59,600 nucleotides of DNA from Candidatus Uhrbacteria bacterium (GTDB lineage: Bacteria > Patescibacteriota > Patescibacteriia > UBA9934). A model generated the notes under the pieces. That model made no database searches and was not told the DNA's origin. It saw nothing but the letters and a program-made list of their open reading frames with translations. The stretch covers positions 1-59,600 of the forward strand of contig CALRHE010000004.1 in NCBI GenBank assembly GCA_943359345.1, in the 5' to 3' direction. Below are positions 1,163 to 20,394 of the stretch, in pieces; position 1 is the first letter of the stretch; each line of letters opens with the position of its first letter. Made by a program: the position numbers and the translations under genes.

Positions 1163-4117
1163 TTATAATTTTGCGGCTGGACAGATGTCTTTAAAATCAC
1201 AGTATCGACACTTCATCGGGTCTGGGTCAGCGGCGAAATCACTTTTGGCAATTCTATCCATAGTTTCAAGTACCTGTTCAATGAGCTTCTCACGATCCTT
1301 ATTACTCGGCTCAAAACTCACCATCTCATTGGTCGTAAGGTAATAATACGTCAGGCGACGGATAGGTTTGGGATTTGGCAAACACTGCTCAAGTGCTAGA
1401 GCATACAACACCAATTGACGCTTATCGTCCCACTCAAGCTTGGATTTTGGATTGCCGGTTTTGTAATCGATAATTTCTAGGCCCCCATCATCGGTCTCAT
1501 CGATGCGATCAATTCTACCCTTAACCAGTACGTCGCCAAGCTTGAGAGTGAAGCCTTGCTCGAGACTAAAAACCTTAGGAGTCTTATCTACGACCTGAGC
1601 GTGAAATTTTCTAAGTGATTCGCGGCCTTGCTCGCGATACTCTTCTCGCTCTTCATTCGAGGTATACCACTCGTCGATAAAACCTTGGTCGAATAGGTCT
1701 AGGAGCTCCTTGAGCACAGGGACAGGCGGGCTCGAGCTTGTTGTGTCACCAAAAAGTGAGACCTGGGTTGCGTCCTGACGTTTTTTTACTTGCTCTAAAA
1801 ATTTCTGGAGCGTGTTATGCATCGATTTTCCAAAACTTAAACTGTGACGTCCGAAGGTTGGAACTTTTAGGATGTGAGCATACTTGTATTGCAGTGGACA
1901 GGTTGTAAAAGCCGCAATCTGAGAAAAACTAATGCGTTCGGGAACTGAATGGAGTAGCTGTTGGTGAGCTCGGACGCTGGCTTCAGGCAGAGTGAGCACA
2001 TCCCGACTCCCAACTGACTGTGCTGGCGTATCAAAACCAAGCTCGGTCAAGAATCGGGAAACCTTACGCTTACGCGAACCGCCATAATCCGCGGCTGACA
2101 TCAAATACAAACCCTCCTTGGCTCTTGTCATGGCCACGTAAAAAAGACGTCGCTCCTCAGCCACGTGATCATCAAGCTCAGCCGTGCCCTGTATCAGTCC
2201 CGGTGGCAAGGGCAAGGCCTCACTACGCGTTATTGAGGGGAAACGTTGCTCAATCAAATTGACCACGAACACGTACCGGAACTCGAGTCCCTTGGCACCA
2301 TGAATTGTCATAACGTTAACCACGTCTGGACCTGACTGGTCATCAGCCTTCAAGCTGCCGGCTTCACCGGCTTCACGCTCAGCCTCAAACTCATCTAGGA
2401 AAGAGGTGGAACTCTTGTCCTCGTTAGCATTTGCAAAACGCTTCAGGCGCGACAAAAAACCCTCCAAATGTCTGAACACCTCTTGTTGTTCGATCTCGGG
2501 CAAGCCACTAACGTCACCAAGTAAGCCTGTGCGTTTCAAAATAAATATAAACAGCTCAGTTACAGGAACTCGTTTAGCCTGATTACGAATGTCAGAAATG
2601 ATCTGCAGAACTTCTAGCATGCGTCCCCTACCCTCAAGTGAAATGCCGATGGCTTCAGTTGACCGCTGCATAGCGTCTACAATTGCCACCCCCTTACGTT
2701 TAACATGAAGCATGAGCTCTGACAGATCGCTCTCAGACACGCCAAGTCTGGGGTGCGATAAAATCCGGTAAGCAGCTGGGCTGTCAAAAGCTAAACGTGC
2801 GAGACGCATGTAGGCCAAAGTGTCCATGATAATCGGTTGCGTGTACAAGCCCGACATGGCCACAAACTTATAAGGGACACCAGCGCGCTCAAGCGCTTCA
2901 AGGAAAGGTTCAGAGGCATCGTTAGCTCGAACGAGTATGCAAAATTCGTTCCATGATCCGCCCGATTTTTTTTGGAGTTCAAGGATCTCACGCACTGTCA
3001 ATTCAACCTCGTCATCGAGTGTGTCGCAGTGCACATGCTTAACAAAGCCCTCTCCGGCCGCCTGCGCTCGTAAGGCCTTAGATAAACCCTCGGTGGCTTC
3101 TAAACGGTGCGGGTTATTTTGTTGAATCAGGCGGTAGGCACCGTCAAGAATAGCCTTACCGCTTCTATAATTACTTGTCAGCACCACTTTCGTAGCCTCG
3201 TTAAAATCATGGCGGAAAGACAAAATGTTAGCCAGGGCCGCACCTCTAAACTTATAAATTGCCTGGTCATCATCGCCCACAACCGTGAGATTGCGGCGCG
3301 GCTCTGAGAGTAATTTTACAAGTTTATATTGAACAGCGTTCGTATCCTGAAACTCATCGACCACGATGTACCTAAAACGCTCGCGATATTCCTTCAGAAC
3401 ATTTGGCCGTTCCAGAAATAAACGCAAAACGTAGGCCAGCAAGCTACCAAAGTCGAGCATCGATTTGTCCACTAGCAACTGCTCATAGGTGGCGTAGGCA
3501 CGAGCTAATTCCTGCCATTTTTGAAGGTCGAGTTTATCTTCATCGCTCATTGATGCAAAGGTTTCAGGCGCACCCCCAGTTTTTTGAGCGATAAAATCCT
3601 CAACCCATTGAGCGTATTCTTCAGGCGTGACGCCTTCGTCCTTAGCGCGTGAAAAATGTTGCAGCATCGACCTCAGAAACTTAGTCGGATTCCCACGCGG
3701 TCGGAAATACTCAAGTTTGAAGCGGTCAAGGTTGCGTCGCATAAGCAACCAGCTATCAACATCAGTAGCAATTTTAAAATCCTGCGGCAAACCAATATGC
3801 ACACCGTGGGCACGCAAAACTTTTTCACAGAAGGCGTGAAAGGTAGAGATGGAAAGATCGACGTAGCCAATTGGCAATAAACGATCAACCCGTTCCTCCA
3901 TTTCTGTAGCCGCTTTTTCGGTAAAAGTCAGTGCTAAAATGTCCTCTGGTCTAGCTTTGCCTTGGTCAATTAACCAGGCAATTCGGCGCGTAATGACAGT
4001 GGTCTTACCGGTTCCGGCCCCGGCTACAATCATCAGCGGGCCATCGCCGTGAGTAACGGCCATAACCTGCTCGGCATTCAAATCTTTAAGTAAATCGGAG
4101 TTGACCATAGACCTCAA
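1163..4117 (-). CDS. UvrD/PcrA-family SF1A helicase fused to a C-terminal PD-(D/E)XK (RecB/AddB/Cas4-like) nuclease with four Fe-S cysteines
   Basis: AGAGTGKT, VDEFQD, VGDDDQAIYKFRGA, NYRS, MTIHGAKGLEF, EERRLFYVAMTRA; C-terminal GRIDRID...IIDYKTG, QLVLY, TCPLQY and CRYCDFKDICP. Confidence 0.92.
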   Translation of the reverse strand: MRSMVNSDLLKDLNAEQVMAVTHGDGPLMIVAGAGTGKTTVITRRIAWLIDQGKARPEDILALTFTEKAATEMEERVDRLLPIGYVDLSISTFHAFCEKVLRAHGVHIGLPQDFKIATDVDSWLLMRRNLDRFKLEYFRPRGNPTKFLRSMLQHFSRAKDEGVTPEEYAQWVEDFIAQKTGGAPETFASMSDEDKLDLQKWQELARAYATYEQLLVDKSMLDFGSLLAYVLRLFLERPNVLKEYRERFRYIVVDEFQDTNAVQYKLVKLLSEPRRNLTVVGDDDQAIYKFRGAALANILSFRHDFNEATKVVLTSNYRSGKAILDGAYRLIQQNNPHRLEATEGLSKALRAQAAGEGFVKHVHCDTLDDEVELTVREILELQKKSGGSWNEFCILVRANDASEPFLEALERAGVPYKFVAMSGLYTQPIIMDTLAYMRLARLAFDSPAAYRILSHPRLGVSESDLSELMLHVKRKGVAIVDAMQRSTEAIGISLEGRGRMLEVLQIISDIRNQAKRVPVTELFIFILKRTGLLGDVSGLPEIEQQEVFRHLEGFLSRLKRFANANEDKSSTSFLDEFEAEREAGEAGSLKADDQSGPDVVNVMTIHGAKGLEFRYVFVVNLIEQRFPSITRSEALPLPPGLIQGTAELDDHVAEERRLFYVAMTRAKEGLYLMSAADYGGSRKRKVSRFLTELGFDTPAQSVGSRDVLTLPEASVRAHQQLLHSVPERISFSQIAAFTTCPLQYKYAHILKVPTFGRHSLSFGKSMHNTLQKFLEQVKKRQDATQVSLFGDTTSSSPPVPVLKELLDLFDQGFIDEWYTSNEEREEYREQGRESLRKFHAQVVDKTPKVFSLEQGFTLKLGDVLVKGRIDRIDETDDGGLEIIDYKTGNPKSKLEWDDKRQLVLYALALEQCLPNPKPIRRLTYYYLTTNEMVSFEPSNKDREKLIEQVLETMDRIAKSDFAADPDPMKCRYCDFKDICPAAKL

Positions 4118-5731
4118 CTATAAATCTGTTCCAGCACAACTTAAACCTAAAGATTGGCTGCACAGCGGAAAATCTGAAACAATATTCCCTGGTGCTATTT
4201 CGCCTAACAATGGCCAGTTACAAAACGATGGGTCACGAATAACGTAACGTTCGATTCTACCTGACTTAAGATAAACAAGGTGCAGAATTTCGCCGCGACC
4301 ATTCTCCACTGCACCTAGGTCACGACCATCCTTAGGTTCACAAGGCATTAGATGGGCACCTTCGCCTGGATTCTTGCACAATTCTTGGATCAATCTTTGG
4401 CTGTCTTTTAACTCGTCAACCCGAAGCATGAAACGGGCATAAACATCGCCCGTTACCTTGATGGGTACTGTGGGTAGGAAACGCCCATAGGCAGCGTACG
4501 GGTGGTCACGACGTACATCCCGATCAATTCCAGAAGCTCGGGCTGCAATGCCTACAGCACCGTAGGCTAAACCGGCTTCCTTGCTTAAAATACCTATATT
4601 CTCAAGCCGGTCACGTAAACCATCTGACTGGATAGCGAGACTTACCACATCCAGCATCTCATCAATTATCTCACCCATGACAATCGAAATCTTTTGAAAT
4701 TCATTAGCCTGAAAGTCACGCGACACGCCTCCAGGCACAATTAAGCCTCGCCAAAAACGGTTACCTAACAGCTCATCAGACAAGCGCACAACCTGCTCCT
4801 TGAGCCTAAAACCCTGAGATGATAAAAGCGTATACCCGGCGCCCAGGCCGCCAATCGTGGCCAGGTCAGAAATATGCATGGTTACGCGTTCAAGTTCATT
4901 CACGAGCGAACGTAAACTCTGGGCCCGTATAGACACCTTGCAAGCCGCCAAATTCTCAATTGCTTGTGCAAAGGCAAGGGCGTGCGAGGCAGCGGAGTCA
5001 CCACAAATATGCTCCACTAGCGTTAATGCTTCAGGTAGATTTTTACCTTCCAATAATTTTTCAACACCTTTATGAGTGAAAAAAAACTTACTCTCAAGGG
5101 CTATCATCCGCTCACCAGCTACGTTTAAACGAAAATGTGCGGGCTCACTAATACCCCCATAAACAGGTCCGAGTGGAATTTCAACAACACCCTCACCTAT
5201 CACAAACGGCATCGGATAAGCTATGTCGGCCGTCTCCATTTTAGCGTTCCACATAAAATCCTTGCGGAGCGGAAAATGTCCTTCCGGTACATTTTCATGG
5301 TGAACCAAACGTCGTGGGTCAGGATGACCAACTGCCTCAATACCGAACATGTCTTGAATAAATCTTTCGAACCAATGGGCCGCCATGACGCGACGTGTAA
5401 CCGATGGGTAGCTTAGATCTTCAGGCTGCAAACGTGTGGACAATAAAAACCAGGTCTGACTTGTGTCATCGTGCAGCAAAGCGTGCACACCATAACTACC
5501 CGCGCTAGTCCGATCATCAGTTGCGTACAGGTGTGCCAAAGCTAAACCAACGCCCACCAAACCGCTGACATCCAAGCTCATGCTCAGCTGCGTGGTTAGG
5601 CCCCTGACATTCACCAGTTCATCAATAATGTCGGCAAATTTTTCGCGCGGCACACTGGCGAAAACAAGGTCAGACCTGTCTGCCTGAATATGTAGGCCAA
5701 GCACGTTGCCCAAGAATTCTTTAAGGCTCAT
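4118..5731 (-). CDS. hyfG: Group-4 hydrogenase-related (Ehr) large subunit, HycE/HyfG-like NuoC+NuoD fusion, lacking NiFe-binding CxxC motifs
   Basis: WFERFIQDMFGI..GHPDPRRL, FPLRKDF, GPVYGGISEPAHFR, THKGVEK, ENGRGE, RDPSF; L1 reads HICGDS and the C-terminus reads DFPLCSQSLGLSCAGTDL (no DPCxxC). Confidence 0.88.
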   Translation of the reverse strand: MSLKEFLGNVLGLHIQADRSDLVFASVPREKFADIIDELVNVRGLTTQLSMSLDVSGLVGVGLALAHLYATDDRTSAGSYGVHALLHDDTSQTWFLLSTRLQPEDLSYPSVTRRVMAAHWFERFIQDMFGIEAVGHPDPRRLVHHENVPEGHFPLRKDFMWNAKMETADIAYPMPFVIGEGVVEIPLGPVYGGISEPAHFRLNVAGERMIALESKFFFTHKGVEKLLEGKNLPEALTLVEHICGDSAASHALAFAQAIENLAACKVSIRAQSLRSLVNELERVTMHISDLATIGGLGAGYTLLSSQGFRLKEQVVRLSDELLGNRFWRGLIVPGGVSRDFQANEFQKISIVMGEIIDEMLDVVSLAIQSDGLRDRLENIGILSKEAGLAYGAVGIAARASGIDRDVRRDHPYAAYGRFLPTVPIKVTGDVYARFMLRVDELKDSQRLIQELCKNPGEGAHLMPCEPKDGRDLGAVENGRGEILHLVYLKSGRIERYVIRDPSFCNWPLLGEIAPGNIVSDFPLCSQSLGLSCAGTDL

Positions 5732-7206
5732 AAGAGTCCGGGGTTAAACGACTGGGCTATACCGAGCATAAAGGCTAGCCCGGCTGGAGTGATATAAAAC
5801 ACCCCCAAAGCCACCGCCAAAAGCAGATGTAGACCCATGACTAGGTGAGTTATATTCCAGGGCTCAGCCACCGTGTTTGAGAATCGTCCGGGCGAGGTAA
5901 ATAAGAGCCCGTAAACATTTCTGATCATAGCCACACTAGCCACTACCAGAGCCAATGAAACCACAAGCGTAATTAATACGTGCTCTCTGAGGCCAAAGCC
6001 AATCACCAACATCTGACTCACAAAGACACCTGAGGGCGGGATAGCTGACAGCATGAGTAAAGTCAACAGAAAGAGCAAACCCGTCCTTGGCAACTTTACC
6101 CAAACGTCCTTTATCAGTGATGTATCGGTTGTTTTGTAGGCTGTAACAATCTCGCCAGCCCCAAAAAATAAGCCCGACTTGAGTAAGGCATGTCCGGGCA
6201 TGTGCATGAGCATAGGCACCAAGCCCGCGGGCCCAAGCCCGATTGCCAAAGTCATCAAGCCCATATGTTCAATGCTTGAATAGGCTAGCAAACGTTTATA
6301 GTTTTTCTGAAGCATTAGGCTGAGCGCGGGCACAACGATGGATAAGCAGCCGAAGACTAAAAACAGTCTGCCTGTCCAAACACCATTATCCATGAAAGCC
6401 AGATCAGCAACTTGTCGAAAGCGTAAAAGTGAGACCAGAGCCACATTCAGTAATACGCCAGATAACAAGGCCGAGATTGGCGCTGGTGTCTTGCTGTGTG
6501 CATCTGGTAGCCAGGTGTGCATTGGGACTAAGCCGATCATGGTTCCGATACCCATAAACACAAACACAAAAGCCCAGTGCATGATTTGGACATTCATACC
6601 TTGAGCGGCAGCAATATCACGAACAGTAGAGAGTAAGAATGAGCTGCCCACACCACTTTGTCCGGCGGCATAAGCGGTGAGGAAGATTCCGATTAAACAC
6701 AAACTCAAACCCAGAGAACACAAGAGGATTGATTTCCAAGCCGCCTCAAGGGCCGAACGTTTACGGTAGAAAGCTATGAGCAGAATCATTAATAGAGTCG
6801 CGGCTTCGAGTGCTAGCCACAGCAAACCCAGATGATTACTGAGCACAGCTACATACATGGCAGCACTTAACAACGGTGCCAGACTGAAATAACGCCGAAT
6901 ATCAGCGGTTGAAATAATTTGCTCTGCTTGTTCACGGGCCAGGTAACGATAGGCAGCCAGCGTAGCTGAAAATGAAATAAGCGCAATCAAAACCAGATTG
7001 AGTGCTGCAATACCGTCCAGATACCATAAGGACCATGGTCCGATGATTCCAACCTGAGAAAAGCCGGGCCAGGCAATATATATGGCCAGGGCCGAACTAA
7101 TCGCCATGAACATCAAACCCAAATATCGAGCCCGCCGGTCAGAAATTGGCAGGTAAGCCGTAGCTGCAGCGATGCTTAGCACGCCGATCAAGATCAGAGG
7201 CAACAT
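5728..7206 (-). CDS. hyfF: HyfF-like (NuoL/M/N, Mrp antiporter-like) membrane subunit
   Basis: WLALEAATL, HTWLPDAHS, SALLSG, KRLLAYSSIEHMG, KSGLFFGAG. Confidence 0.88.
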   Translation of the reverse strand: MLPLILIGVLSIAAATAYLPISDRRARYLGLMFMAISSALAIYIAWPGFSQVGIIGPWSLWYLDGIAALNLVLIALISFSATLAAYRYLAREQAEQIISTADIRRYFSLAPLLSAAMYVAVLSNHLGLLWLALEAATLLMILLIAFYRKRSALEAAWKSILLCSLGLSLCLIGIFLTAYAAGQSGVGSSFLLSTVRDIAAAQGMNVQIMHWAFVFVFMGIGTMIGLVPMHTWLPDAHSKTPAPISALLSGVLLNVALVSLLRFRQVADLAFMDNGVWTGRLFLVFGCLSIVVPALSLMLQKNYKRLLAYSSIEHMGLMTLAIGLGPAGLVPMLMHMPGHALLKSGLFFGAGEIVTAYKTTDTSLIKDVWVKLPRTGLLFLLTLLMLSAIPPSGVFVSQMLVIGFGLREHVLITLVVSLALVVASVAMIRNVYGLLFTSPGRFSNTVAEPWNITHLVMGLHLLLAVALGVFYITPAGLAFMLGIAQSFNPGLL

Positions 7207-7211
7207 ATTGG

Positions 7212-7874
7212 TTAACCAATTAATTCACGCAATTCACCAGTATCCTCCACTGCGTATAGTTCCTTAAGCCTACGTGCTAATAAACTCATGAGGAGCACCC
7301 CAAGAGTGACAGTGAGGTCAATCCCCAACTCTGCCAAAAGCGGGATCGCCCCCAGTGTAGCTGTAGCCAAAAGCGTGATGCCATTTCCGAGGGTGAAAAA
7401 AGCGATTATCTGCGAATACGGATCGCGGCGCACCATCATCGTGACACTACCTATAAGCATGATTGCAAAGGCTAGACAAATCAAAATCAAGTTGACATCC
7501 GAAACCGCGGGTGCAATCGCTCTAGCCGCCATAACCGCCACTCCTAAGGCCACACCGAAAACAAAGTATGACCCAGCTGAACTAACCAACGATATCAAGC
7601 GACCACTAGTATATGAACGTTTGGCACTGCTAGTAATAATTACGGGAATCAGCATGGCCTTAAAGATTAAAACACAGACAGCATTCAGATAAAGATGTTG
7701 GTCACCGTGAAAGGCTAAACTGCCCAAGAGCAACGCTAGAAACATTGATTGGAGTGCAAAGTAACGCACCATTTGACCTTGACGAAACTTACTACTGCCC
7801 CAAACAGCACACAATAAAAGTGCTACGGCTAAAGCTGTAGTGACGATGTCAAATGAATTTAAGACTGAGGTCAT
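7212..7874 (-). CDS. hyfE: HyfE-like membrane subunit
   Basis: Position between hyfC and hyfF homologs; 'LIFKAMLIP' and 'SQIIAFFTLGNGI' resemble HyfE. Confidence 0.75.
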   Translation of the reverse strand: MTSVLNSFDIVTTALAVALLLCAVWGSSKFRQGQMVRYFALQSMFLALLLGSLAFHGDQHLYLNAVCVLIFKAMLIPVIITSSAKRSYTSGRLISLVSSAGSYFVFGVALGVAVMAARAIAPAVSDVNLILICLAFAIMLIGSVTMMVRRDPYSQIIAFFTLGNGITLLATATLGAIPLLAELGIDLTVTLGVLLMSLLARRLKELYAVEDTGELRELIG

Positions 7875-8824
7875 ATAAGGCGTGACAAGAGTGCTAAGGA
7901 CACACCACCGAGTGCCATAAAGAAGGCGCTCGTTAGAAACTCTTGAATACGATAGAGCCGTACCCTGGCAATGCTAGATTCAAGCAAGGCAATAACAAAC
8001 ATTACCACTAACAACTTGAGCAAGGTTGCTAGAATTACACTGAACACAGTCAGGCCGCTGGATGTAGCTACAAGGATTGGCCAGGGTAATATCAGATTAG
8101 CAAGCAAGAGCACAAACACGGTTAGCTTAAGCGCGGAGGCATATTCAAGCATGGCCAGATACGGACCAGAGTAATCAAAGACCGTGGCTTCATGCATCAT
8201 TGTAAGTTCCAGTTGCGTACCTGGTTCGTCAACTGGATAACGGGCAGTTTCAGCCAAAGCAGTGAGCATGAGTGCAAACCATGACAACACCAAATACGGT
8301 GCCTGAATTAGCAGACCTCCGACCATGACCTGACCGCTAATCACTCCGTCAAGTGTAGATGACCCGGTGGCAAGAACTAAAGCTATAAAAGTCAGAATTA
8401 TGGTGGGCTCAAACAAAGCCGCCAGCGTGATGGCACGGCTGCCACCCAAACCTCCAAACGCACTTCCAGCATCGAACGCACCCATGACCAAAAACGTTGA
8501 ACTCAATAACAGCACAGCCGCGACCACAATAAAATTCGACAGCGCAGTCAAACTCCCGCCTACGGACACAAGCGGTAAAACTAAAGCTAAAAAAATATTC
8601 GATCCCAGCACTGCATAGGGTGTTACGTGCAGCATCCATGAACCGGTACTCGAAATTACGTTCTCCTTTTTCAATAAATTAGCGTATGTAATATAGGGTA
8701 ACCACGGTACAGCCCCATGACGACCTTGCAATCGGGCTTTGAACCAGCGCACGCCACCCACTGACATAGGTGCCAGTGACAAGACAAGGCTTATCTGAAT
8801 TAGACTTAATATGAGCGGGCTCAT
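7871..8824 (-). CDS. hyfC: HyfC/HycD-like (NuoH-like) membrane subunit
   Basis: KARLQGRHG, GSAFGGLGGSR, AETARYPVD, LELTMMHEA..DYSG. Confidence 0.88.
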   Translation of the reverse strand: MSPLILSLIQISLVLSLAPMSVGGVRWFKARLQGRHGAVPWLPYITYANLLKKENVISSTGSWMLHVTPYAVLGSNIFLALVLPLVSVGGSLTALSNFIVVAAVLLLSSTFLVMGAFDAGSAFGGLGGSRAITLAALFEPTIILTFIALVLATGSSTLDGVISGQVMVGGLLIQAPYLVLSWFALMLTALAETARYPVDEPGTQLELTMMHEATVFDYSGPYLAMLEYASALKLTVFVLLLANLILPWPILVATSSGLTVFSVILATLLKLLVVMFVIALLESSIARVRLYRIQEFLTSAFFMALGGVSLALLSRLI

Positions 8825-10815
8825 AAGGCAATCATCAGGGTTAAGACCGTGGCTAGTAAAATCAAGCTAATATACGCTTGGAGATTACCACTTTGGAGTC
8901 TTACCACGAGGCTGGCTAGACGTGTAAACCCAGCACCAATAGGCACATACAGCCGGTCGTACCATACCTGATTGATAAGCAATGTCATCGAACGTGCAAC
9001 AATCCAGCGATTATGGGTCGTGACCGGAGTGACATTGACTAGTTTTTTTGTGCGCAGAAAAAAACTAAATAAAAATCTGATCGGAGCCGAAAAGGCCGTG
9101 CTCGTGAACTCCATACGTGGAGTTAGAGGCTGGCCACCATCCCAGGTTTGATATTCACGTGTCAGCTTTACATCACTGATCAAGCCACGTATCAACCACA
9201 GACCGAACACCACCACCAGCATAAATAAGGCTAAATCCATCGGTACCAAACTGCCTCCACCAGTGACCAAAATTTGCTGACTAAAGTTGGCTGGCGCTAT
9301 GCCTACAGCTCCAATGCCGTTCAGCACCTGAGGCGCAAATAAACCCAGCATAAGTCCGAGTCCTGACAGTGAAGTTATTGGAAGCAAGAACTCGAGCCCA
9401 GGCTGCATAGCTGCAGCTGCTGGCTCAGAACGAGCTTGTGCTAAAAATGCCATGGCGTACAGCTTCACCATTGCAAATACAGCCAGACCGGTCACAAAAG
9501 TAATGGTGGACACAGTTACCAAGATCATAATCTTGAGCCTCAATGAAGACTCTTCCAAACCGCCCACCATAGCCTGCACAAAAATCCAGTCAGCTATAAA
9601 CGGTGCGAACGGTGGTAAAAAAGCTGCACCCAATATAAGCATGAACACCCCTACAGATAACTGGGGCATGCGCTTCGCCAATCCGCCCATAGCTTCAAGT
9701 CTGCGACTACGAGCGGCCGCCACTAGCACACCTGAAGCCAGGAATAATCCAGACTGACACACGGCCTGGGCCAGCATCAAAAATATCGCAGCGTACACCG
9801 CAGCCTGGGCCAGGACCAGATTCCCCTCTTGTCCAGCCAGTAACGCCAAGCCAAGCATAGTAAACATGATCCCAAAATTCTGAATACTCGTGTAAGCTAA
9901 TAAACGTGTGATGTCGCGCTCAAGCACGGAATATAAAACGCCTACAACTGCGGACAGTAAGCCCAGAAAAAACACTGTAAACACTGCCCACATCGGAACT
10001 CCTGGCAGTAAGAACAGAAAAACTCTTAAAAAACCATACACGGCAATGTTTAGCATGGCTCCGGATAACAGCGCTGAGACCTGGGTTGGAACTTGGGAGT
10101 GAACCTCTGGCAACCAAACGTGGAATGGAACCAAACCAGCCTTGCACCCGAAGCCAAAAATTAGGAGTCCAATGGCTACAAATAAACTGACCTGAGGAAG
10201 ATCGGCAGTCATTTGAGCTAAGACTGAAAAATTATTCAGTAAGGCTCCACCAGACAACAGGAAAAGTCCAGCCATGATGGCGCTCGTACTCAGATGAGCC
10301 AAGATCAAGTACAAAAACCCAGCTTTACGTGAGACCGCCTTGCCATCAGCCAGGATGAGAAAGAACAGGGTTATCGACATGATCTCCCAGAAAGTCATGA
10401 AGCCGAAAATATTTGTTGATAAAATAACGCCTTGCATGCCAAAGATAAACACCGCCGTTAGGATGTTCACATTCCGAATATTGTAGTTATCTGGTTGCTG
10501 TTCAAGGTACGGAATCGCGTACGCGGCTGCAAAAAAACTTATTCCTGACACGAGTGTATAAAAAATCGCTGAAAACCGATCAAGACTGAAATTCATGCCA
10601 TAAAATACCGGCCACAGACTGGCAGAAGGTAAAATCAACGGTTCGGTAGCAGTGGCTATAAATATACCCACCACCGCTCCCATAAGGGCGCACACAGCTA
10701 CGATCAGGTTACTCAACCGATGCGCATGACGGTTGGGCAAGCTTGCTACCACCGCTGCCAGGGCCATACCTAGGAACGAGGCTAGTAGCATAATCGCCAG
10801 GGCTTGCATAGTCAT
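8821..10815 (-). CDS. hyfB: HyfB/HycC-like (NuoL-like) antiporter-type membrane subunit
   Basis: FWEIMS, KAGLVPFHVWLPEVH, LLAYTS, LGGL-like 'AMGGLAKRMP', C-terminal RLQSGNLQAYI. Confidence 0.88.
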   Translation of the reverse strand: MTMQALAIMLLASFLGMALAAVVASLPNRHAHRLSNLIVAVCALMGAVVGIFIATATEPLILPSASLWPVFYGMNFSLDRFSAIFYTLVSGISFFAAAYAIPYLEQQPDNYNIRNVNILTAVFIFGMQGVILSTNIFGFMTFWEIMSITLFFLILADGKAVSRKAGFLYLILAHLSTSAIMAGLFLLSGGALLNNFSVLAQMTADLPQVSLFVAIGLLIFGFGCKAGLVPFHVWLPEVHSQVPTQVSALLSGAMLNIAVYGFLRVFLFLLPGVPMWAVFTVFFLGLLSAVVGVLYSVLERDITRLLAYTSIQNFGIMFTMLGLALLAGQEGNLVLAQAAVYAAIFLMLAQAVCQSGLFLASGVLVAAARSRRLEAMGGLAKRMPQLSVGVFMLILGAAFLPPFAPFIADWIFVQAMVGGLEESSLRLKIMILVTVSTITFVTGLAVFAMVKLYAMAFLAQARSEPAAAAMQPGLEFLLPITSLSGLGLMLGLFAPQVLNGIGAVGIAPANFSQQILVTGGGSLVPMDLALFMLVVVFGLWLIRGLISDVKLTREYQTWDGGQPLTPRMEFTSTAFSAPIRFLFSFFLRTKKLVNVTPVTTHNRWIVARSMTLLINQVWYDRLYVPIGAGFTRLASLVVRLQSGNLQAYISLILLATVLTLMIAL

Positions 10816-10818
10816 AGG

Positions 10819-11361
10819 CTAGGCACGGGCTGATTCAAGAGCCTGTAATACACCTCGGAGTATGTTGGTAGGTGAAGGCGGGTCGCCAGGAATGCGCACG
10901 TGGACCGGAATAACTGCATCAACTGGACCAACTACGGCATAAGAGTCTTTCCAAAGGCCGCCAGCACACGCCCCATCACCAATCGCGACTACTAGGCAAG
11001 GTTGCGGGGCGGCTGCATAGGTAGTCCTTAGGGCTCGTTCCATGTTCCGAGTCACTGGCCCAGTCACAAATAATATATCGGCGTGTCTGGGTGAGGCTAC
11101 GAAACTTAAGCCGAATCGTTCAAGATCGTAATAAGCATTACTAAGCGCACTCAGTTCTTGTTCTTCGGCGTTGGATGAGCCAGCATTGACTGCACGAATG
11201 CGTAACGCTCGTCCGGAGTACAAGTCCTTAACTACAGCCCTCAAAGCCTCACCCACAACCTCAAAATCATTGGCCTTGACCTGCGTGAAATTTTGCTCGT
11301 GCAAAGTGACCCTCGGTCCAAAAAACAGCAAATTCAGCAGGCGTAACAGCGTCATATGCAA
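10819..11361 (-). CDS. hyfI: HycG/HyfI-like (NuoB-like) small subunit with the Fe-S cysteines substituted
   Basis: YYDLERFG, FVASPRHADILFVTGPVTRNM; motifs read GSSNAE, GDGAC and IPGDPP in place of GSCNGC, GDCA and GCPP. Confidence 0.88.
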   Translation of the reverse strand: MHMTLLRLLNLLFFGPRVTLHEQNFTQVKANDFEVVGEALRAVVKDLYSGRALRIRAVNAGSSNAEEQELSALSNAYYDLERFGLSFVASPRHADILFVTGPVTRNMERALRTTYAAAPQPCLVVAIGDGACAGGLWKDSYAVVGPVDAVIPVHVRIPGDPPSPTNILRGVLQALESARA

Positions 11362-11379
11362 AAGTCTGTGAATGACCGA

Positions 11380-11408
11380 AGTTTACGCCCCGGGTCTAGA
11401 TGTGGCAA
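11380..11408 (-). promoter_or_regulatory. Putative sigma70 promoter for the hyf/ehr cluster
   Basis: Minus strand TTGCCA (11408-11403), 17 nt, TAAACT (11385-11380), about 20 nt before the hyfI start. Confidence 0.5.
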
Positions 11409-11418
11409 TAACCCTGGC

Positions 11419-11844
11419 CTAGCGTCGACGTTGGCCCTTAACGGCCACGCGATAGCGGGCTAATTCACGTTCTAGATGAGCGGCTGCGCTTGCAAAAGAC
11501 ACGTCTTCACGGTTACGAATATTTTTCAAAGCCTCTTCGGCTAAACGTTTAGCTGTTTCAATTTTTTCAAGCTCAAGTTCCTCAGATCTTTCCGCCGTAT
11601 TAGCCAAAATTACGATCTGATTATTCTTTTTAACCTCAAGTAAACCGGTCGAGACCGCCAAGAGCTCCTCCTTACCCTCCAGAGTTCTCACGCGCATCTC
11701 TCCCGCCTTCAAAAGTGAAGCCAGCGGAATATGACCGGGCAAAACCGTAATCTCGCCGTCTTCGGTCATAACCGAAAGCGACGTAGCCTCACCCTCGAGG
11801 ACTACTCGTTCAGGGGTGATGATTTTGTAGGTGAGGTTCTTCAT
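11419..11844 (-). CDS. atpC: ATP synthase F1 epsilon subunit
   Basis: IITPER, GEITVLPGHIPL, C-terminal helical hairpin. Confidence 0.95.
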   Translation of the reverse strand: MKNLTYKIITPERVVLEGEATSLSVMTEDGEITVLPGHIPLASLLKAGEMRVRTLEGKEELLAVSTGLLEVKKNNQIVILANTAERSEELELEKIETAKRLAEEALKNIRNREDVSFASAAAHLERELARYRVAVKGQRRR

Positions 11845-11862
11845 ACTTGTGGCAGGGTGTTT

Positions 11863-11973
11863 AGATATTAGGAATTAGATATTAGTAAGAATGTAGAAGT
11901 TTGATCTTAGACTAACTGCAGCCCCCTAACTTCTAAAGTCTAAGCTCTTACTAATATCTAATTCCTAATATCT
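11863..11973. repeat. Perfect 28-bp inverted repeat built from 7-nt units in the atpD-atpC spacer
   Basis: agatattaggaattagatattagtaaga (11863-11890) and its exact reverse complement (11946-11973). Confidence 0.9.
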
Positions 11974-11983
11974 TCATCTAGTA

Positions 11984-14216
<2,233 letters not shown>

Positions 14217-14224
14217 AGACCGAT

Positions 14225-14298
14225 GGGGTTAACGGGGTTGAGGGGGTTGATGATGGCACACCGGACCTCGGTGAACAGTCAACTGTCAACGGTAAACG
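14225..14298. repeat. Three 9-nt units (ggggttRaN) plus four 7-nt units (gtNaacN) in the atpA-atpG spacer
   Basis: ggggttaac ggggttgag ggggttgat (14225-14251); gtgaaca gtcaact gtcaacg gtaaacg (14271-14298). Confidence 0.7.
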
Positions 14299-14300
14299 AA

Positions 14301-15800
14301 TTACTTAAATGTTGAAACAAAATCTTTGATGTGCTTTTCAAGATCGCCCTGTACTTCCTTAACGTCGCGGCTGTCGAAAATAGCCTTCAAAGTCTCGCCA
14401 CCAAGACCCTGCATGTACTTGATGAGCTCAGCCTCGAAGCGATGCACCTCGGCCACCGCGATGTCGTCGATGTAACCATTGTTGAGCGCAAACATAATCA
14501 CTGACTGCTCAGCAAACGACATCGGGGAGTATTGCTTTTGCTTCATGACCTCCATGGCCCGACGACCACGTTCGATCTGCTGCTTGGTGGCCTCGTCGAG
14601 GTCGGTGGCAAACTGGGCAAAGGCTTCGAGCTCGCGATATTGAGCTAGGTCGACCTTCAGCGTCTTAGCCACAGCCTTCATAGCCTTGGTCTGAGCAGCC
14701 GAGCCCACGCGTGACACCGAGTTACCAATGTTCACAGCCGGACGCTGACCACGGTAGAAGAGATCGCTCTCCAAGAAAATTTGACCATCGGTAATTGAAA
14801 TCACGTTTGTCGGAATGTAGGCCGAGATATCACCACCTTGAGTTTCGATAATCGGTAAGGCCGTAATCGATCCCCCGCCGTTCTCCTTGTTCATGCGAGC
14901 AGAGCGCTCAAGCAAACGAGAGTGTAAGTAGAAGACGTCACCCGGATAAGCTTCGCGTCCCGGTGGACGACGAAGTAAAAGAGAAATTTCGCGGTAGGCC
15001 CAAGCGTGCTTGGACAAATCATCGTAAACTATCAGAACGTCCTCGCCCTTAGCCATGAAGTACTCAGCAATGGCACAACCAGCGTAAGGAGCGATGTAAA
15101 GCATGGCGGCGGGGTCGGAAGCGCCTGCGACCACGATGGTCGTGTACTCCATAGCCCCGGCCTTCTCAAGACGCGTACGAATCTGAGCCACCTTAGATTC
15201 CTTTTGACCGATAGCCACGTAGACGCACTTAGTGTTCTCACCCTTCTGGTTCAAAATCGTGTCAATAGCGATGGCGGTCTTACCCGTTTGGCGGTCACCG
15301 ATGATAAGCTCGCGTTGTCCGCGACCGATCGGGATCAGTGCATCGATTGCCTTAATACCGGTGTGCATCGGCACGCCCACTGACTGGCGGGTCATAACGC
15401 CTGGAGCAACCTTTTCGATCGGTACAAACTCGGCGTTAGCAATAGCGCCCTTGCCATCCACTGGATTACCGAGCGAGTCAACCACGCGACCAACAATACT
15501 ATCGGCAACAGGGATCGAAAGAATACGGCCGGTTGAACGCACGGTGTCGCCAGCCTTCACGGCCCAAGCGTCGCCAAGCAAAATTGCCCCGGTAGTTTCT
15601 TCCTCAAGGTTTAAAGCTACACCAAACACACCCGACCCAAAGTCCAACATTTCTTGGCTCTTCACGCTAGACAAACCGCTCATACGGGCCACGCCATCGG
15701 AAACCGAAACGACTGTGCCCACGCGCTCTTCATGCGCTTCGGCTTTAAAGGCCTCAACCTGCTTGCGCAGAGCCTCGATGATGTCCATTTTCTTTGCCAT
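14301..15800 (-). CDS. atpA: ATP synthase F1 alpha subunit
   Basis: [31 protein letters not shown]. Confidence 0.99.
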
Positions 15801-15803
15801 AAT

Positions 15804-16187
15804 TTAGGAAAGTAACGCTTGTTTCAAACGCGTAAGAGCTCCGAGCACGGTGCCGTCAATGCGTCGCTCATCGAGCCGAATGAGGGCACCGCCCATCAGC
15901 CGCTCGTCGACCAACCGCTGAACTTCAGCCCCATTGGCGAGTTGTTCGATTTTTTCCATGGCCTTGTCCGTGAGTGGATGAGCCGAGGCGATGGTGATCT
16001 TTGAAGCTCCGTATTTTTCGCGCCAGGCTTCGTTAAGCTCACGCTCCAAATCACGCCAACGTCCGAGCAAACCCTTGCTGGCCAAGTAGGTCACGACCTC
16101 GGCCATGTGCCTATCAATATCCTTAGCCGTTTTGCCCTCGAGCTCGTTAACCAAGGTACGAGCAATCCCGCGCATGCTTTTCTTCAT
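15804..16187 (-). CDS. atpH: ATP synthase delta subunit (short form)
   Basis: Operon position; 'VDERLMGGALIRLDERRIDGTV' OSCP C-terminal motif. Confidence 0.88.
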   Translation of the reverse strand: MKKSMRGIARTLVNELEGKTAKDIDRHMAEVVTYLASKGLLGRWRDLERELNEAWREKYGASKITIASAHPLTDKAMEKIEQLANGAEVQRLVDERLMGGALIRLDERRIDGTVLGALTRLKQALLS

Positions 16188-16190
16188 ACG

Positions 16191-16763
16191 CTAGGTGAGT
16201 TTACGTACCATTTCTTCAGCCAAAGACTGTGACTTCTTTTCAGTCAAACCTTCGGTGACGATCTTGGCAGCAGCCTTAACAGCGATGTCAACCAAATCCT
16301 TGCGAGCCGTCATAAGCATGGCCACACGCTCTTCGTCCAGTTGTTGTTTACCCCTCTGGATAACGCGCTCAACCTCACGCTTGGCGGCCTCAACCATCTC
16401 GTTCTTACGGGCTTCAGTGTCAGCCACGGCTTTGTCGATGATCGCTTGAGCTTCGCCACGAGCCGCCACCACAATTTTCTGGTGTTCGACCTCAGCGTCA
16501 CGCAAGCGTTTCTCGATGGCCTCAGCATTCTTCACGCTTTCAGCGATCTTCTGTTCGCGCTCTTCGAGCAGGCGCATGATTGGCTTGTAGGCAAAGCGCC
16601 ACAAGACCAGCAACACCAATAAGAAGTTCACGAGCTGGGCCGCAAATAAATCGCCGCGCAACCCAAAAGTACCGATCACACCCTCAAGCCCACCCTCTTC
16701 AGAGTGTTCTTGAGTAGCGGTAGTGGTCGTGACTGCGTCCTCGGTGGTAGTTGACATACGCAA
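16191..16763 (-). CDS. atpF: ATP synthase Fo b subunit
   Basis: AQLVNFLLVLLVLWRFAYKPI, LEEREQKI, coiled coil. Confidence 0.95.
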   Translation of the reverse strand: MRMSTTTEDAVTTTTATQEHSEEGGLEGVIGTFGLRGDLFAAQLVNFLLVLLVLWRFAYKPIMRLLEEREQKIAESVKNAEAIEKRLRDAEVEHQKIVVAARGEAQAIIDKAVADTEARKNEMVEAAKREVERVIQRGKQQLDEERVAMLMTARKDLVDIAVKAAAKIVTEGLTEKKSQSLAEEMVRKLT

Positions 16764-16779
16764 ACGTTAAACGCAAGAA

Positions 16780-17010
<231 letters not shown>

Positions 17011-17020
17011 TTAATTATCC

Positions 17021-17048
17021 GAACCTTGAACACTGGACATTGAACATG
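17021..17048. repeat. Four 7-nt units in the atpB-atpE spacer
   Basis: gaacctt gaacact ggacatt gaacatg. Confidence 0.55.
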
Positions 17049-17143
17049 AAAAGTTTGCTCAATGTTGAAGGTTAAAGATTCGGTGAGAGTTGAGGTCTCT
17101 CCGTAGAATCACCGTGCTCGATGACGCTGCGGAGGTACCCCAC

Positions 17144-18016
17144 TTAGGCGTGGGCTGGAGCGTGTTCTTTATCATGATTTTCCTCCTCATGTCCATGTTC
17201 CATGGTCGCCACCGTCAGGAACACCAAGACCAGCAATGCGAAAACTGTGGCCTGAATGACGCCCACGAGAATTTCAAGGAACATGAACGGAATCGGGATC
17301 ACAAATGACGCCAAACTGAGCATGACGCCAATCAAAATTTCACCAGCAAAAACGTTGCCAAACAAACGCAGTGACAACGAAGCGATACGCGCAGCCTCGC
17401 CGATGATCTCGAGCAAACCGACGAAGAACTCAATAATAGCAACGCCGATAGCGACCGGACCTTTAGGGATAGCTCGGAAGATGCCTCGAATATTAATAAA
17501 TTTACTCACGTAGTTTACAAAACCCACGCCGCGGACGCCAGCCAGCTGCACAATCACCACCGAGAAAACCGCCAAGGCTAAAGTGAGGTTCAGATCGGAC
17601 GTGGCTGGTCGCAACAAGGGAATGAGTTCAACAGCGCCATGAACCTCTCCATAAAAACCGATTGTGCCCGTACCTGGAATGAGTCCCAACCAGTTATTCG
17701 CCAGAATGAACAAAAACAAGGTCGCAACCAGTGGGAAAAAGACTTTGGTCTTTTTGTGATCACCGGTGACCTTGTCCATTTCGTCCATCATGAAAACCAC
17801 GATGGTCTCAAACACATTGTGAATACCCCGAGGCACAAGCGAGGTACGACGCGAAGCGACGGCGGCAATCAGGAGAAAAACCAGCGTCACGATCCAAGCA
17901 TTGAGCATGGTGTTCGTGACTGGAAAATTACCCAGCTGAAAAATTGGTTCAGCGGCTAGCGCTGCCCCCAGAACCGGGAGGTTTAATGTCCGTAAGTTTT
18001 TTATACTCTGTGCCAT
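17144..18016 (-). CDS. atpB: ATP synthase Fo a subunit
   Basis: AAEPIF, NNWLGLIPG, RPATSDLN, SLSLRLFGNVFAGE, IQATVFALL. Confidence 0.97.
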   Translation of the reverse strand: MAQSIKNLRTLNLPVLGAALAAEPIFQLGNFPVTNTMLNAWIVTLVFLLIAAVASRRTSLVPRGIHNVFETIVVFMMDEMDKVTGDHKKTKVFFPLVATLFLFILANNWLGLIPGTGTIGFYGEVHGAVELIPLLRPATSDLNLTLALAVFSVVIVQLAGVRGVGFVNYVSKFINIRGIFRAIPKGPVAIGVAIIEFFVGLLEIIGEAARIASLSLRLFGNVFAGEILIGVMLSLASFVIPIPFMFLEILVGVIQATVFALLVLVFLTVATMEHGHEEENHDKEHAPAHA

Positions 18017-18224
18017 AACCTTGAACCTTTTTTACCACCATCAGTAAACTGAGAATAAACACCGCGATGAGACTTATGAAAAAGATGAGCTGCTCGTAAG
18101 CTAGGTGATCATAGGCCTTACGCAGCAATATGACCAAGACCGGCGGAATCAACATGGTGCCCGTAATATCGGCCATGGCTTTCATGGCGAATAAGTACAA
18201 AACACGTAAGTCATTTTCTACCAT
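17949..18224 (-). CDS. AtpZ/AtpI-like small membrane protein (start moved to ATG 18224)
   Basis: Two TM helices (DITGTMLIPPVLVILL; LIFFISLIAVFILSLLMV) directly upstream of atpB; the longer 18440 start gives non-protein-like sequence. Confidence 0.65.
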   Translation of the reverse strand: MVENDLRVLYLFAMKAMADITGTMLIPPVLVILLRKAYDHLAYEQLIFFISLIAVFILSLLMVVKKVQGYGTEYKKLTDIKPPGSGGSASR

Positions 18225-18391
18225 AAAAGCGCTAGGAGTATACGTGTCTAGATGGCTAGCGTCAAGAATCAAGAAACTGCAAGAACAGGACCACGCCCGA
18301 TAAAATACGAAACCGCCCACCAGATGAGCCGGAAGGCGGCTCGTGGCACGTCGTTTGTAAACGGCGTGCCGTGGTGGGCGGTGAGGAGATG

Positions 18392-18847
18392 TTAATCTTC
18401 TATCTCTTCTTGATCGTCTGGAGAAGAATCCGGTGGGCACGCAAGGTGTGCGAAGATAACGCGGAGCATCTTCGTCGCTGGGATGCCGTCGTTCGGGGAC
18501 TGGAGGTTAATCCCACTTTCCGTCATGGCCTGTAGGTGGAGAGTGAGACACGCATCTTCCCCGTTGATCACGAAGAACGGCTCGTTGGCATAGAGGACAA
18601 ACTGCACTTCATTACTGAACTCTGTCAAGTAGAGAGTGACCGTCAATTTGGCATTGTCATACCAGGATTCCAAACTGGGAGTGCTCGGGCAAAGGCGGAT
18701 GGTGACCCGTTCACAGTCGGTTGTAAAGGTCAGCACAGCCTCACCGTCGTAAGAATCATCTTCTGTCACTCCAAAGTCGTTTAGCGACAGAGCGTAAACC
18801 ATGAGGTTGGCGATGTCGAGAAGACGCTGGTTGGCGATGTCGCTCAT
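18392..18847 (-). CDS. ORFan hypothetical protein, acidic
   Basis: 151 aa; GAGG SD, own promoter, visibly more GC-rich than flanks. Confidence 0.65.
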   Translation of the reverse strand: MSDIANQRLLDIANLMVYALSLNDFGVTEDDSYDGEAVLTFTTDCERVTIRLCPSTPSLESWYDNAKLTVTLYLTEFSNEVQFVLYANEPFFVINGEDACLTLHLQAMTESGINLQSPNDGIPATKMLRVIFAHLACPPDSSPDDQEEIED

Positions 18848-18908
18848 GATGAACCTCGGAGGATGAGTTCAAACCGGCGATTGCCAGTCTGGTCGTTGGA
18901 CGACCGAG

Positions 18909-18937
18909 AAGCATATCATAAAATGTCAATAAAAGCA
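18909..18937 (-). promoter_or_regulatory. Putative sigma70 promoter for the 18847 ORFan
   Basis: Minus strand TTGCTT, 17 nt, TATGCT. Confidence 0.45.
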
Positions 18938-18951
18938 AGGGCTCGCCCAAA

Positions 18952-18983
18952 CAGCCCGACCCCCAAAATTGGGGGTCGGGCTG
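18952..18983. terminator. Perfect 15-bp hairpin downstream of the 19005-19511 lipoprotein gene
   Basis: cagcccgacccccaa aa ttgggggtcgggctg. Confidence 0.65.
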
Positions 18984-19004
18984 ATCTTGGCTATAAACTG
19001 TGAC

Positions 19005-19511
19005 CTACTCGTTCCAATGGATTTGCTGGATAACTGCTTCAGCCAGAGCTTCGCCCGCTGGCTTTAGGTAGAATAAACCAATATACACGTTTTGCTCATC
19101 TAAATAGTAACTGTGACCGGGCCAGGTTTCGCCGCCAAGTAGTCGGCCATTACCCCGTATGGCCTCCTTGCCTGCTAAAATCACGTCTTCAGTAGAAGTG
19201 AAGCTGTCGGCTATGTTCTCTTGGCCAGAGATATAGGGTGTTATCTCAATAAAAAAAGTTTGATCAGGATATTCAATGCCGTAGCCATCCTGTGAGATAA
19301 AGTTTTGAATCCGTACCCTACTCTCTGTCTGCTCGAGCACGTAACCGTAGTCAACCGGCAAACGGTAGGCGGCTGTATTTACGAATTGATATTCGCCACT
19401 CGGGAAAGCTGCCTCCCAGCCCTGAACCGTTTCACTAGTTTGGGACGTAGCGTTCACACAGCCTCCTCCGATTAAAAGTAGCATTGCCCCCGCCAGTAAA
19501 TATTTTTTCAT
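19005..19511 (-). CDS. Putative lipoprotein (start moved to ATG 19511)
   Basis: MKKYLLAGAMLLLIGGGC signal peptide with lipobox-like GGGC. Confidence 0.7.
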   Translation of the reverse strand: MKKYLLAGAMLLLIGGGCVNATSQTSETVQGWEAAFPSGEYQFVNTAAYRLPVDYGYVLEQTESRVRIQNFISQDGYGIEYPDQTFFIEITPYISGQENIADSFTSTEDVILAGKEAIRGNGRLLGGETWPGHSYYLDEQNVYIGLFYLKPAGEALAEAVIQQIHWNE

Positions 19512-19512
19512 A

Positions 19513-20394
19513 TTAGCTGAGTTTAAATAATTTTTTTGCATTCTCTGTCGTCACCCTGGCTACCTCGTCGACAGTGATCCCCTTTAATTCAGCAATCTTC
19601 TGAGCTACGTGTTCGACGTACTTCGGTTCGTTACGTTTACCCCGATGCGGTGCTGGGGTCAGGTAGGGCGAATCGGTTTCGATCATGATCTGCTCAAGCG
19701 GTATCTCCTTAGCAGCCGCCATGACGTTTTTTCCGAAGGTCACAATACCCGTCAAGGATACGTAAAAACCGAGTTCATGATACACGGCCGCCTCGGCCAC
19801 TGTGCCAGTGAAACAGTGGATCACCCCACGACGTTTTAGGCCACCTCGATCAATCTCTTCTCTCAAAAGCTCAGCCTGGTCGGTGTGTGCATCGCGACAA
19901 TGAATGACGACGGGTTTGTCGACCTCAGTCGCAAAACGCAACTGTTCACGAGCTTGATCTTGCTGGTCTTTTTTCAGAGCTTCGAGATCGACGCCTGGAG
20001 GAACACGATAATAATCCAGACCGAGCTCACCGATGGCCACAACCTTTGGGTGCTTGGCGAGTTCACGATAATAATCCCAATCAAAGCGTTCGGCTCGCGT
20101 CCTAATGTGAGCGGGGCCATCACCTTCTTTCAGATCGTCAACAATACCCGGCGGAAGCTCGTTCTCATCAAAAAAATCCTGGGCGTGCAAATGATTCGGG
20201 TGGAGTCCGATCGTGCACCATACACCGTCATACTTCTCGGCCAGCGCGATACCATTCTTGCTCGTCGTCGACTGCGTGCCCACAGTAATCATGCCCACAC
20301 CGGCTTCGAGCGCTCGTTTCACAACAGCGTCCATGTCTTCCTGGAAAGCCTGAAAGTGAACGTGGCAATGCGTGTCAATAAACCTATAATCCAT
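19513..20394 (-). CDS. tatD: TatD family hydrolase/DNase
   Basis: DTHCH, GLHP, IGELGLDY, IHCR, VIHCFTG, IETDSPYL. Confidence 0.95.
   Translation of the reverse strand: MDYRFIDTHCHVHFQAFQEDMDAVVKRALEAGVGMITVGTQSTTSKNGIALAEKYDGVWCTIGLHPNHLHAQDFFDENELPPGIVDDLKEGDGPAHIRTRAERFDWDYYRELAKHPKVVAIGELGLDYYRVPPGVDLEALKKDQQDQAREQLRFATEVDKPVVIHCRDAHTDQAELLREEIDRGGLKRRGVIHCFTGTVAEAAVYHELGFYVSLTGIVTFGKNVMAAAKEIPLEQIMIETDSPYLTPAPHRGKRNEPKYVEHVAQKIAELKGITVDEVARVTTENAKKLFKLS

Follow-up and report, generated by a model that had tools for sequence, protein, structure and literature searches.

An Ehr-type complex of Patescibacteria without recognisable redox-cofactor sites is a candidate redox-free ion translocator

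INTRODUCTION

The accepted view of complex I, the membrane hydrogenases and their relatives is that all of them pump ions with redox energy, which enters through the NuoB cluster at the junction of NuoB, NuoD and NuoH.

For the Ehr relatives of these machines, the sections of Jaffe et al. (2020, BMC Biol; PMC7304191) that treat them describe large subunits from CPR bacteria that have no metal-binding cysteines and form one monophyletic clade, and for these the conclusion drawn is that they 'likely cannot interact with H2'. The analysis in those sections is of the large subunit only; loss of the small-subunit ligands, fixed Glu, Gly and Asp residues and a missing ferredoxin subunit are not reported there. 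Three further studies of Ehr, namely Matheus Carnevali 2019 (PMC6349859), a study of comammox Nitrospira (PMC10284858) and a Geobacter proteomics study (PMC7894505), describe only missing NiFe ligands.

We analysed a 59.6-kb stretch of DNA, all of which is called the window here, that carries an operon of this kind. The host is an ultra-small lake bacterium that is fermentative and has no respiratory chain. In the organisms concerned, the operon type, the cysteine-less large subunit and the monophyly apart from other Ehr, the window matches the CPR clade as those sections of PMC7304191 present it. A reading made from the letters alone (the sequence-only reading) had called the machine undescribed, which does not hold for the clade or for the large-subunit loss (PMC7304191). 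For the small subunit it may hold: a full-text literature search, outside which lie the founding papers (Marreiros 2013, Coppi 2005), gave no description of an Ehr small subunit that lacks the cluster. Hence, the complex is an Fe-S-free form of a known Ehr complex that the literature anticipates in part.

RESULTS

A six-gene Ehr operon next to the ATP synthase genes

Using Pfam and NCBIfam models, we identified six tightly packed genes on the minus strand between positions 4118 and 11361 (Table 1). They make up the Ehr gene set in one operon, with antiporter-like EhrA/D, NuoH-like EhrB, HyfE-like EhrC, EhrL and EhrS, and, of the 80 loci described below, the related ones that are full-length have the same six genes. 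The neighbours of the operon in the window are the atp operon and a UvrD-like gene, and a consensus scan found no terminator-like site in the 57-63 nt gap between the atp operon and the small-subunit gene. The atp operon lies upstream of the Ehr operon in the window and in L001, L002 and L081-84; in L005 and L027 it is downstream. Most of the 41 loci with a Cys-less small subunit lack this adjacency. In a Moranbacteria-like subclade (roughly L015-L032), genes for a Na+/H+ exchanger (PF00999) in 9 loci and for a DedA/VTT-domain membrane protein in 15 loci stand before the operon on the same strand (about 7000-9900).

Table 1. Positions of the Ehr-type operon, its altered residues and the adjoining ATP synthase genes in the window
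Feature	Position	Strand	Basis or remark
Large subunit (HycE/NuoCD-like), 537 aa, without NiFe ligands	4118..5731	-	EHICGDSAASH and GLSCAGTDL
HyfF/NuoN-like antiporter-type subunit, 492 aa	5728..7206	-	Pfam/NCBIfam
HyfE-like membrane subunit, 220 aa	7212..7874	-	NCBIfam/Pfam
HyfC/NuoH-like subunit, 317 aa	7871..8824	-	Pfam/NCBIfam
HyfB/NuoL-like antiporter-type subunit, 664 aa	8821..10815	-	Pfam/NCBIfam
Small subunit (NuoB/HycG/EhrS-like)	10819..11361	-	without Fe-S ligands; 180 aa from TTG, 178 aa from ATG at 11355
P158-G-D160-P161 codons, in place of the GCPP motif (ligand 4)	10879..10890	-	MbhJ/HycG alignment
D129-G130-A-C132 codons; G130 in place of ligand 3	10966..10977	-	MbhJ/HycG alignment
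S63-N-A-E66 codons, in place of CxxC (ligands 1 and 2)	11164..11175	-	MbhJ/HycG alignment
F1Fo ATP synthase operon atpB-E-F-H-A-G-D-C, directly upstream	11419..18016	-	same strand
Large subunit, window-specific: H191Y, N525S, K526Q, Y532C	4118..5731	-	
HyfF, window-specific: K223M (TM7 Lys), Q398 (TM12 position)	5728..7206	-	
HyfE, window-specific: E163G	7212..7874	-	
HyfC, window-specific: E131A, H204Q, K287R	7871..8824	-	
HyfB, window-specific: K303T, E312Q, H346L, H350Q, K354Q, E409D, plus K256N	8821..10815	-	

The small subunit keeps its fold and has lost all four cluster ligands

The small-subunit ORF translates without a stop, and its true start is probably the ATG at 11355, which gives the length seen in most homologs. 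The protein belongs to the NuoB/PSST/HycG family by its score against Pfam PF01058 (Oxidored_q6; 82.8 bits, cut-off 27), and it scores below the cut-offs of the NCBIfam NuoB subfamily models (103 vs 116). Its best solved relatives found with HMMER are MbhJ (6cfw_J, E 4e-28) and HycG (7z0s_G, E 3e-24), and the motifs ERFG, ASPRHAD and TGPVTRNM are all present. An AF2 model built with 62 homologs as input reached a pLDDT of 87.5 (87-94 in the blocks that hold the old ligand positions), and Foldseek superposed it on MbhJ 6cfw_J with a TM of 0.86 and an rmsd of 1.6 A over 132 columns. Hence, the model has the flavodoxin-like NuoB/MbhJ fold, and the window copy deviates at none of the 38 near-invariant columns of the small subunit.

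In the HMMER alignments, S63, E66, G130 and D160 fall under the four cluster cysteines of MbhJ and HycG, with the codons TCC, GAA, GGG and GAC, and the family's ligand pattern CxxC...GxC...GCPP is absent. The small subunit is therefore predicted to be unable to hold a canonical [4Fe-4S] cluster. The sequence-only reading had seen a clear NuoB/HycG fold with its ligands replaced, which the Pfam match, both alignments and the model bear out, and it had noted that some replacements need more than one base change, which is so: Cys to Glu and Cys to Asp each take two or three.

The ligand loss is authentic and under purifying selection

Two assemblies from other samples (L081 and L082) encode the same four residues at the ligand positions, and their whole operons are collinear with that of the window, from which they differ by about 100 substitutions in 11 kb and by no indel. 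The window stretch is also contained in about 17 lake or freshwater metagenome runs. Sequencing error, already judged unlikely from the letters alone, and a private mutation are ruled out, since the same residues occur in these independent assemblies and in 120 homologs.

Between the window and L081/L082, we counted 20 synonymous and 2 non-synonymous differences in the small subunit (dN/dS 0.03) and, for the six genes pooled, 50 synonymous and 17 non-synonymous differences (dN/dS roughly 0.1). The four membrane subunits gave dN/dS values of 0-0.33 and the neighbouring uvrD-like gene 0.29; the value of 0.61 for the large subunit comes from just 2 synonymous and 4 non-synonymous differences. A private decay with dN/dS near 1, proposed earlier as what would overturn the reading, was not seen; the ligand loss is not decay, because it is clade-wide and under purifying selection.

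The stretch from 10500 to 11500 has 24-33 substitutions per kb relative to L081/L082, nearly all synonymous, which is 2-4 times the density found elsewhere in the operon (about 8 per kb). It looks like a recombination patch spanning the small-subunit gene and the end of atpC. In two metatranscriptomes from samples that bear the organism, we found matches only to short conserved atpA/atpD fragments of other organisms.

Three replacement residues are fixed across a Patescibacteria-type clade

The best 120 protein matches (65-99% identity) all keep GS[T/S]NAEE, GDGAC and PGDPP, and those that are named come from Patescibacteria, Parcubacteria, Uhrbacteria and Falkowbacteria. A 99%-identical protein (P0002) carries the label Nitrosomonadaceae on a 2.5-kb contig and is probably mis-binned.

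A scan of one genome per species gave 80 loci, comprising the 41 closest, Patescibacteria-type loci and 39 others; nearest to the window are loci from Patescibacteria and Uhrbacteria. All 41 were scored as Cys-less (GS[S/T/N/A]N[A/G]EE, GDGA[C/I/V], PG[D/N]PP), with one Cys retained in the T-C-D-D pattern of L037. The other 39 all keep GSCN[G/A]CE, G[A/D]C and PGCPP, in hosts that include Acidobacteriota, Verrucomicrobiota, Bacteroidota, Zetaproteobacteria and Methanoperedens. That ordinary Ehr small subunits keep their cluster, as had been presumed, is thus what we found.

Glu66 is present in 121/121 close homologs and 41/42 clade loci, Gly130 in 121/121 close homologs, and Asp160 in 120/121 close homologs and 40/42 clade loci, with Cys at this last position in 39/39 other Ehr. 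Position 63 varies (S/T/N/A) across the clade. Cys132, two residues past the third-ligand position, is kept in 116/121 close relatives; it is not a conserved substitute ligand, because the position reads C, I or V in the wider clade, and as a shifted third ligand it is ruled out. By these alignments E66, G130 and D160 are the only clade-wide replacement residues. Hence, the earlier question of whether S/E/G/D is conserved in a clade is answered positively for three of the residues and negatively for S63, and the earlier proposal of a new site built from Ser, Glu, Cys and Asp fails as drawn, because neither S63 nor C132 is conserved.

The cluster was apparently lost once in this clade

With the ligand columns masked, the small-subunit tree placed the 42 Cys-less rows on one side of one branch (UFboot 86, SH-aLRT 89), the window grouping with Patescibacteria sequences, and a single change suffices in 87% of the bootstrap trees. 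This placement points to one ancient loss, in which the ancestor of the Cys-less clade would have given up the proximal [4Fe-4S] cluster. Identity within the clade is only about 50%. In the tree, the Cys-less clade has as close neighbours the Cys-bearing Ehr loci with the gene order of the window (small subunit first; L042, L044, L062, L068, L071 and L076).

The only systematic differences between Cys-less and Cys-bearing small subunits are E66, G130, D160 and a conservative L70. We found no compensating charged residue in the large subunit or HyfC, and neither the small nor the large subunit has basic residues that would compensate. Since the loss of the cluster came with no other systematic change, Ehr complexes in general may already be able to do their core work without it.

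A library of representatives at 50% identity contains more Cys-less small subunits elsewhere in the Ehr tree (P0126, P0144, P0157, P0159, P0187, P0204, P0223, P0239 and P0255). Their ligand patterns include DVDD, DIDD, DAAD, DTAD, DEDS, SAES and ECED; some are named Chloroflexota or Dehalococcoidia. The sequences of this set favour two or three carboxylates (Asp/Glu) at the old ligand positions. These lineages apparently arose independently.

CPR-type Cys-less operons also occur on contigs labelled 'uncultured bacterium', 'Acidobacteriota' or 'Bdellovibrionales' (L037 on a 2.79-Mb contig, L004 on a 403-kb contig, and L016-L034), and the L037 contig is far larger than a CPR genome. Either these labels or assemblies are wrong, or the Cys-less type exists outside Patescibacteria as well.

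The complex has no recognisable redox cofactor

At L1 (RxCGxCxxxH) and L2 (DPCxxCxxH/R), the large subunit of the window reads EHICGDSAASH and GLSCAGTDL, and three of the four aligned cysteines are absent. We recovered large subunits from 67 of the 80 loci in addition to the window and found the NiFe cysteines absent in all; the recovered proteins carry ER[IV]SGD... and N.SYSG.D in their place. The loci are Ehr-type because their large subunits have these two features.

A ferredoxin-type domain gives ordinary Ehr an electron-input module. In many Cys-bearing Ehr loci from Bacteroidota and Ignavibacteriota (L048-L052, L079), such a domain with one or two CxxCxxCxxxC motifs (2x[4Fe-4S]) forms an N-terminal fusion with the small subunit; Methanoperedens and a Methanomassiliicoccaceae MAG (L070) encode it on its own, in a gene of about 110 aa immediately upstream of the small subunit. 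Further loci with a ferredoxin-type domain (about 9600-10000, as in L070) are L054, L057, L060, L061, L063, L064 and L080. The CxxCxxCxxxC motif was found in no ORF of the 59.6-kb window and in none of the 41 Cys-less loci, each searched with 10 kb to either side, so that a ferredoxin or other Cys-rich partner is rejected for both. Among the ORFs at 4000-20000 of the window, no Hyp maturation gene was recognised.

Lack of NiFe ligands, of the proximal cluster and of a ferredoxin-type subunit would together leave the complex redox-inert. As predicted from its genes, it is a six-subunit complex without a recognisable redox cofactor that cannot transfer electrons, which agrees with the earlier view that it is unfit for canonical electron transfer. 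The small subunit could still bind a redox cofactor through non-Cys ligands, for example an Asp/Glu/Ser-ligated Fe-S cluster or a mononuclear iron; other proteins are known in which one Asp or Ser serves as a ligand of a [4Fe-4S] cluster, and the pocket retains two carboxylates. However, Cys is missing from all four ligand positions, one of which holds Gly, the sole nearby Cys (C132) is not conserved, and both the electron-input subunit and the NiFe site are absent, so we consider such a cofactor exceedingly improbable.

The membrane arm of the clade keeps its antiporter residues

As in Cys-bearing Ehr, the Cys-less clade keeps the TM5 Glu, the TM7 Lys and the His-His-Lys relay in both HyfB and HyfF. 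HyfB also keeps the TM8 Lys and TM12 Glu across the clade. For HyfF, most members of both groups have Asn at the TM8 position, and the Cys-less clade has Glu or Lys at the TM12 position. These retained residues, together with ion-gradient neighbours, best support reading the complex as a redox-free ion translocator or antiporter, and its likeliest role would be redox-free ion handling beside the adjacent F1Fo ATPase.

The near-invariance of E66 and D160 at only about 50% identity is more than a vacated site would need, and it suggests another reading, which overlaps with the redox-free translocator: the former cluster pocket (Glu66 and Asp160, with the ancestral Asp129 and Glu67) could be a new cation- or proton-binding site whose occupancy drives or gates the membrane arm, making the peripheral arm a sensor or coupling site and more than a structural cap. 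Convergence of independent Cys-less Ehr lineages on two or three carboxylates fits such a site, as does the lack of a new basic partner residue in both the small and the large subunit. But a pair of buried carboxylates might do no more than stabilise the fold, by hydrogen bonding or by sharing a proton, and S63 and C132 vary. We therefore hold the new site to be a tentative and rather unlikely proposal. The combined claim that the machine works without any electron transfer and that a Glu66/Asp160 proton or cation coupling site drives or gates its membrane arm seems to us unlikely.

Complex-I-type modules are also known to couple to CO2 hydration, as in NDH-1MS/CupA and DabAB, and by that precedent the complex could be the membrane part of a CO2- or bicarbonate-handling system with a neighbouring carbonic anhydrase. 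The gene neighbourhoods speak against it: no carbonic-anhydrase family is among the 25 commonest Pfam families in the 114 immediate neighbours of the 41 closest loci, and a search for the beta type of the enzyme by its beta-CA signature gave 0/80 loci and nothing in the 59.6-kb window. Hence, a carbonic-anhydrase partnership is very unlikely.

The window copy has lost invariant residues of the membrane arm

Taking 66-69 Ehr homologs of both kinds (41 for HyfE), we looked at the positions with at least 95% invariance and found that the window departs from them in HyfB, HyfC, HyfE, HyfF and the large subunit (Table 1). In this lineage alone, protonatable residues give way there to neutral ones: K303T, E312Q, H346L, H350Q and K354Q in HyfB, K223M in HyfF, E131A and H204Q in HyfC, E163G in HyfE, and H191Y and K526Q in the large subunit. 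All the changes are also in L081 and L082. The nearest species-level relative, L001, has only a subset (HyfB K256N, H346M and K354M; large subunit K526E and Y532C), and the loss of invariant residues looks progressive in the atp-linked lineage. These losses argue against canonical proton translocation by the window copy: it probably cannot use the canonical lateral proton relay, as judged from the missing residues, and yet it is maintained under purifying selection.

Because many invariant charged residues are lost only in the window (in HyfB, HyfC, HyfE, HyfF and the large subunit), and its proteins are 1-7 points further from outgroups than those of L001 in nearly all comparisons, the operon could be a decaying relic of incipient pseudogenes in this genome. 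Against this stand six intact collinear ORFs without indels in three assemblies, the dN/dS values of the small subunit (0.03) and the membrane subunits (0-0.33), the unaltered near-invariant columns of the small subunit (0/38 changed) and an overall rate ratio that is normal for the subclade. Hence, decay is highly improbable. A general rate acceleration of the window's membrane genes is unsupported as well, since the ratio of small-subunit to HyfB identity is normal for the subclade.

DISCUSSION

Taken as a whole, our results are best explained by loss of the cluster from a complex that, now cofactor-free, acts as a redox-free ion translocator or antiporter beside the F1Fo ATPase; we put the probability of this reading at roughly 0.6. 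Under it, the ancestral ligands would have become Ser/Thr/Asn, Glu, Gly and Asp, after which Glu, Gly and Asp were fixed. An oxidised Cys4[4Fe-4S] centre has a net charge equal to two negative charges, and, going by homology, Glu66 and Asp160 would fill the old cluster pocket with two negative charges and may bind a cation or proton. The NuoB-NuoCD peripheral cap would remain seated on the NuoH-like subunit, where it would serve for structure or gating. The complex would translocate or exchange H+ or Na+ without redox chemistry, and it would use or reshape the gradient of the F1Fo ATPase in fermentative bacteria that have no respiratory chain.

A large and widespread clade keeps the whole architecture of a redox-driven pump under purifying selection without a recognisable redox-cofactor site. 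The Cys-less clade thus lets one ask, in a natural system, what a coupling module is capable of without electrons, and it bears on how CPR bacteria that do not respire manage their membrane potential beside an ATP synthase. The window copy, whose proton-relay residues are neutralised and which is selected nonetheless, raises the question of a non-transport role.

Among known systems, Ehr complexes of other phyla, such as EhrA-D, L and S of Geobacter sulfurreducens (GSU0739-45), have the same six-subunit set as the window (two antiporter-like, one NuoH-like, one HyfE-like, one large and one small subunit). They also share the large-subunit motifs ER[IV]SGD and N.SYSG.D, which stand where the NiFe cysteines would be, and the window has the Ehr hallmark of a large subunit related to group 4 hydrogenases without NiFe ligands. 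The difference lies in the small subunit, where the window lacks the [4Fe-4S] ligands of Ehr: 39/39 Ehr loci of other phyla keep the four cysteines and many add a 2x[4Fe-4S] domain, whereas the window clade has neither.

The group 4 [NiFe] hydrogenases Mbh (6CFW) and Hyc (7Z0S) are the best matches of the window's small, large and membrane subunits. They carry NiFe, a proximal [4Fe-4S] cluster and ferredoxin-like subunits and make H2, whereas the window has none of these ligand sets; both the L1/L2 cysteines and the ferredoxin-like (HycF/NuoI-type) subunit that mark this group are missing. Nor is the operon a respiratory complex I, as the N-module (NuoE/F/G), NuoI and NuoA/J/K are not among the six genes.

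Mrp antiporters are redox-free, and their antiporter-like subunits MrpA and MrpD share Pfam PF00361 with the window complex. However, Mrp has no NuoB/NuoD/NuoH-like module, and the window operon has no MrpB/C/E/F/G: only the PF00361 subunits of the MrpA-G set are shared, and the other four genes are NuoH-, HyfE-, NuoCD- and NuoB-like. The window complex most likely works like Mrp, by analogy in function and not by membership.
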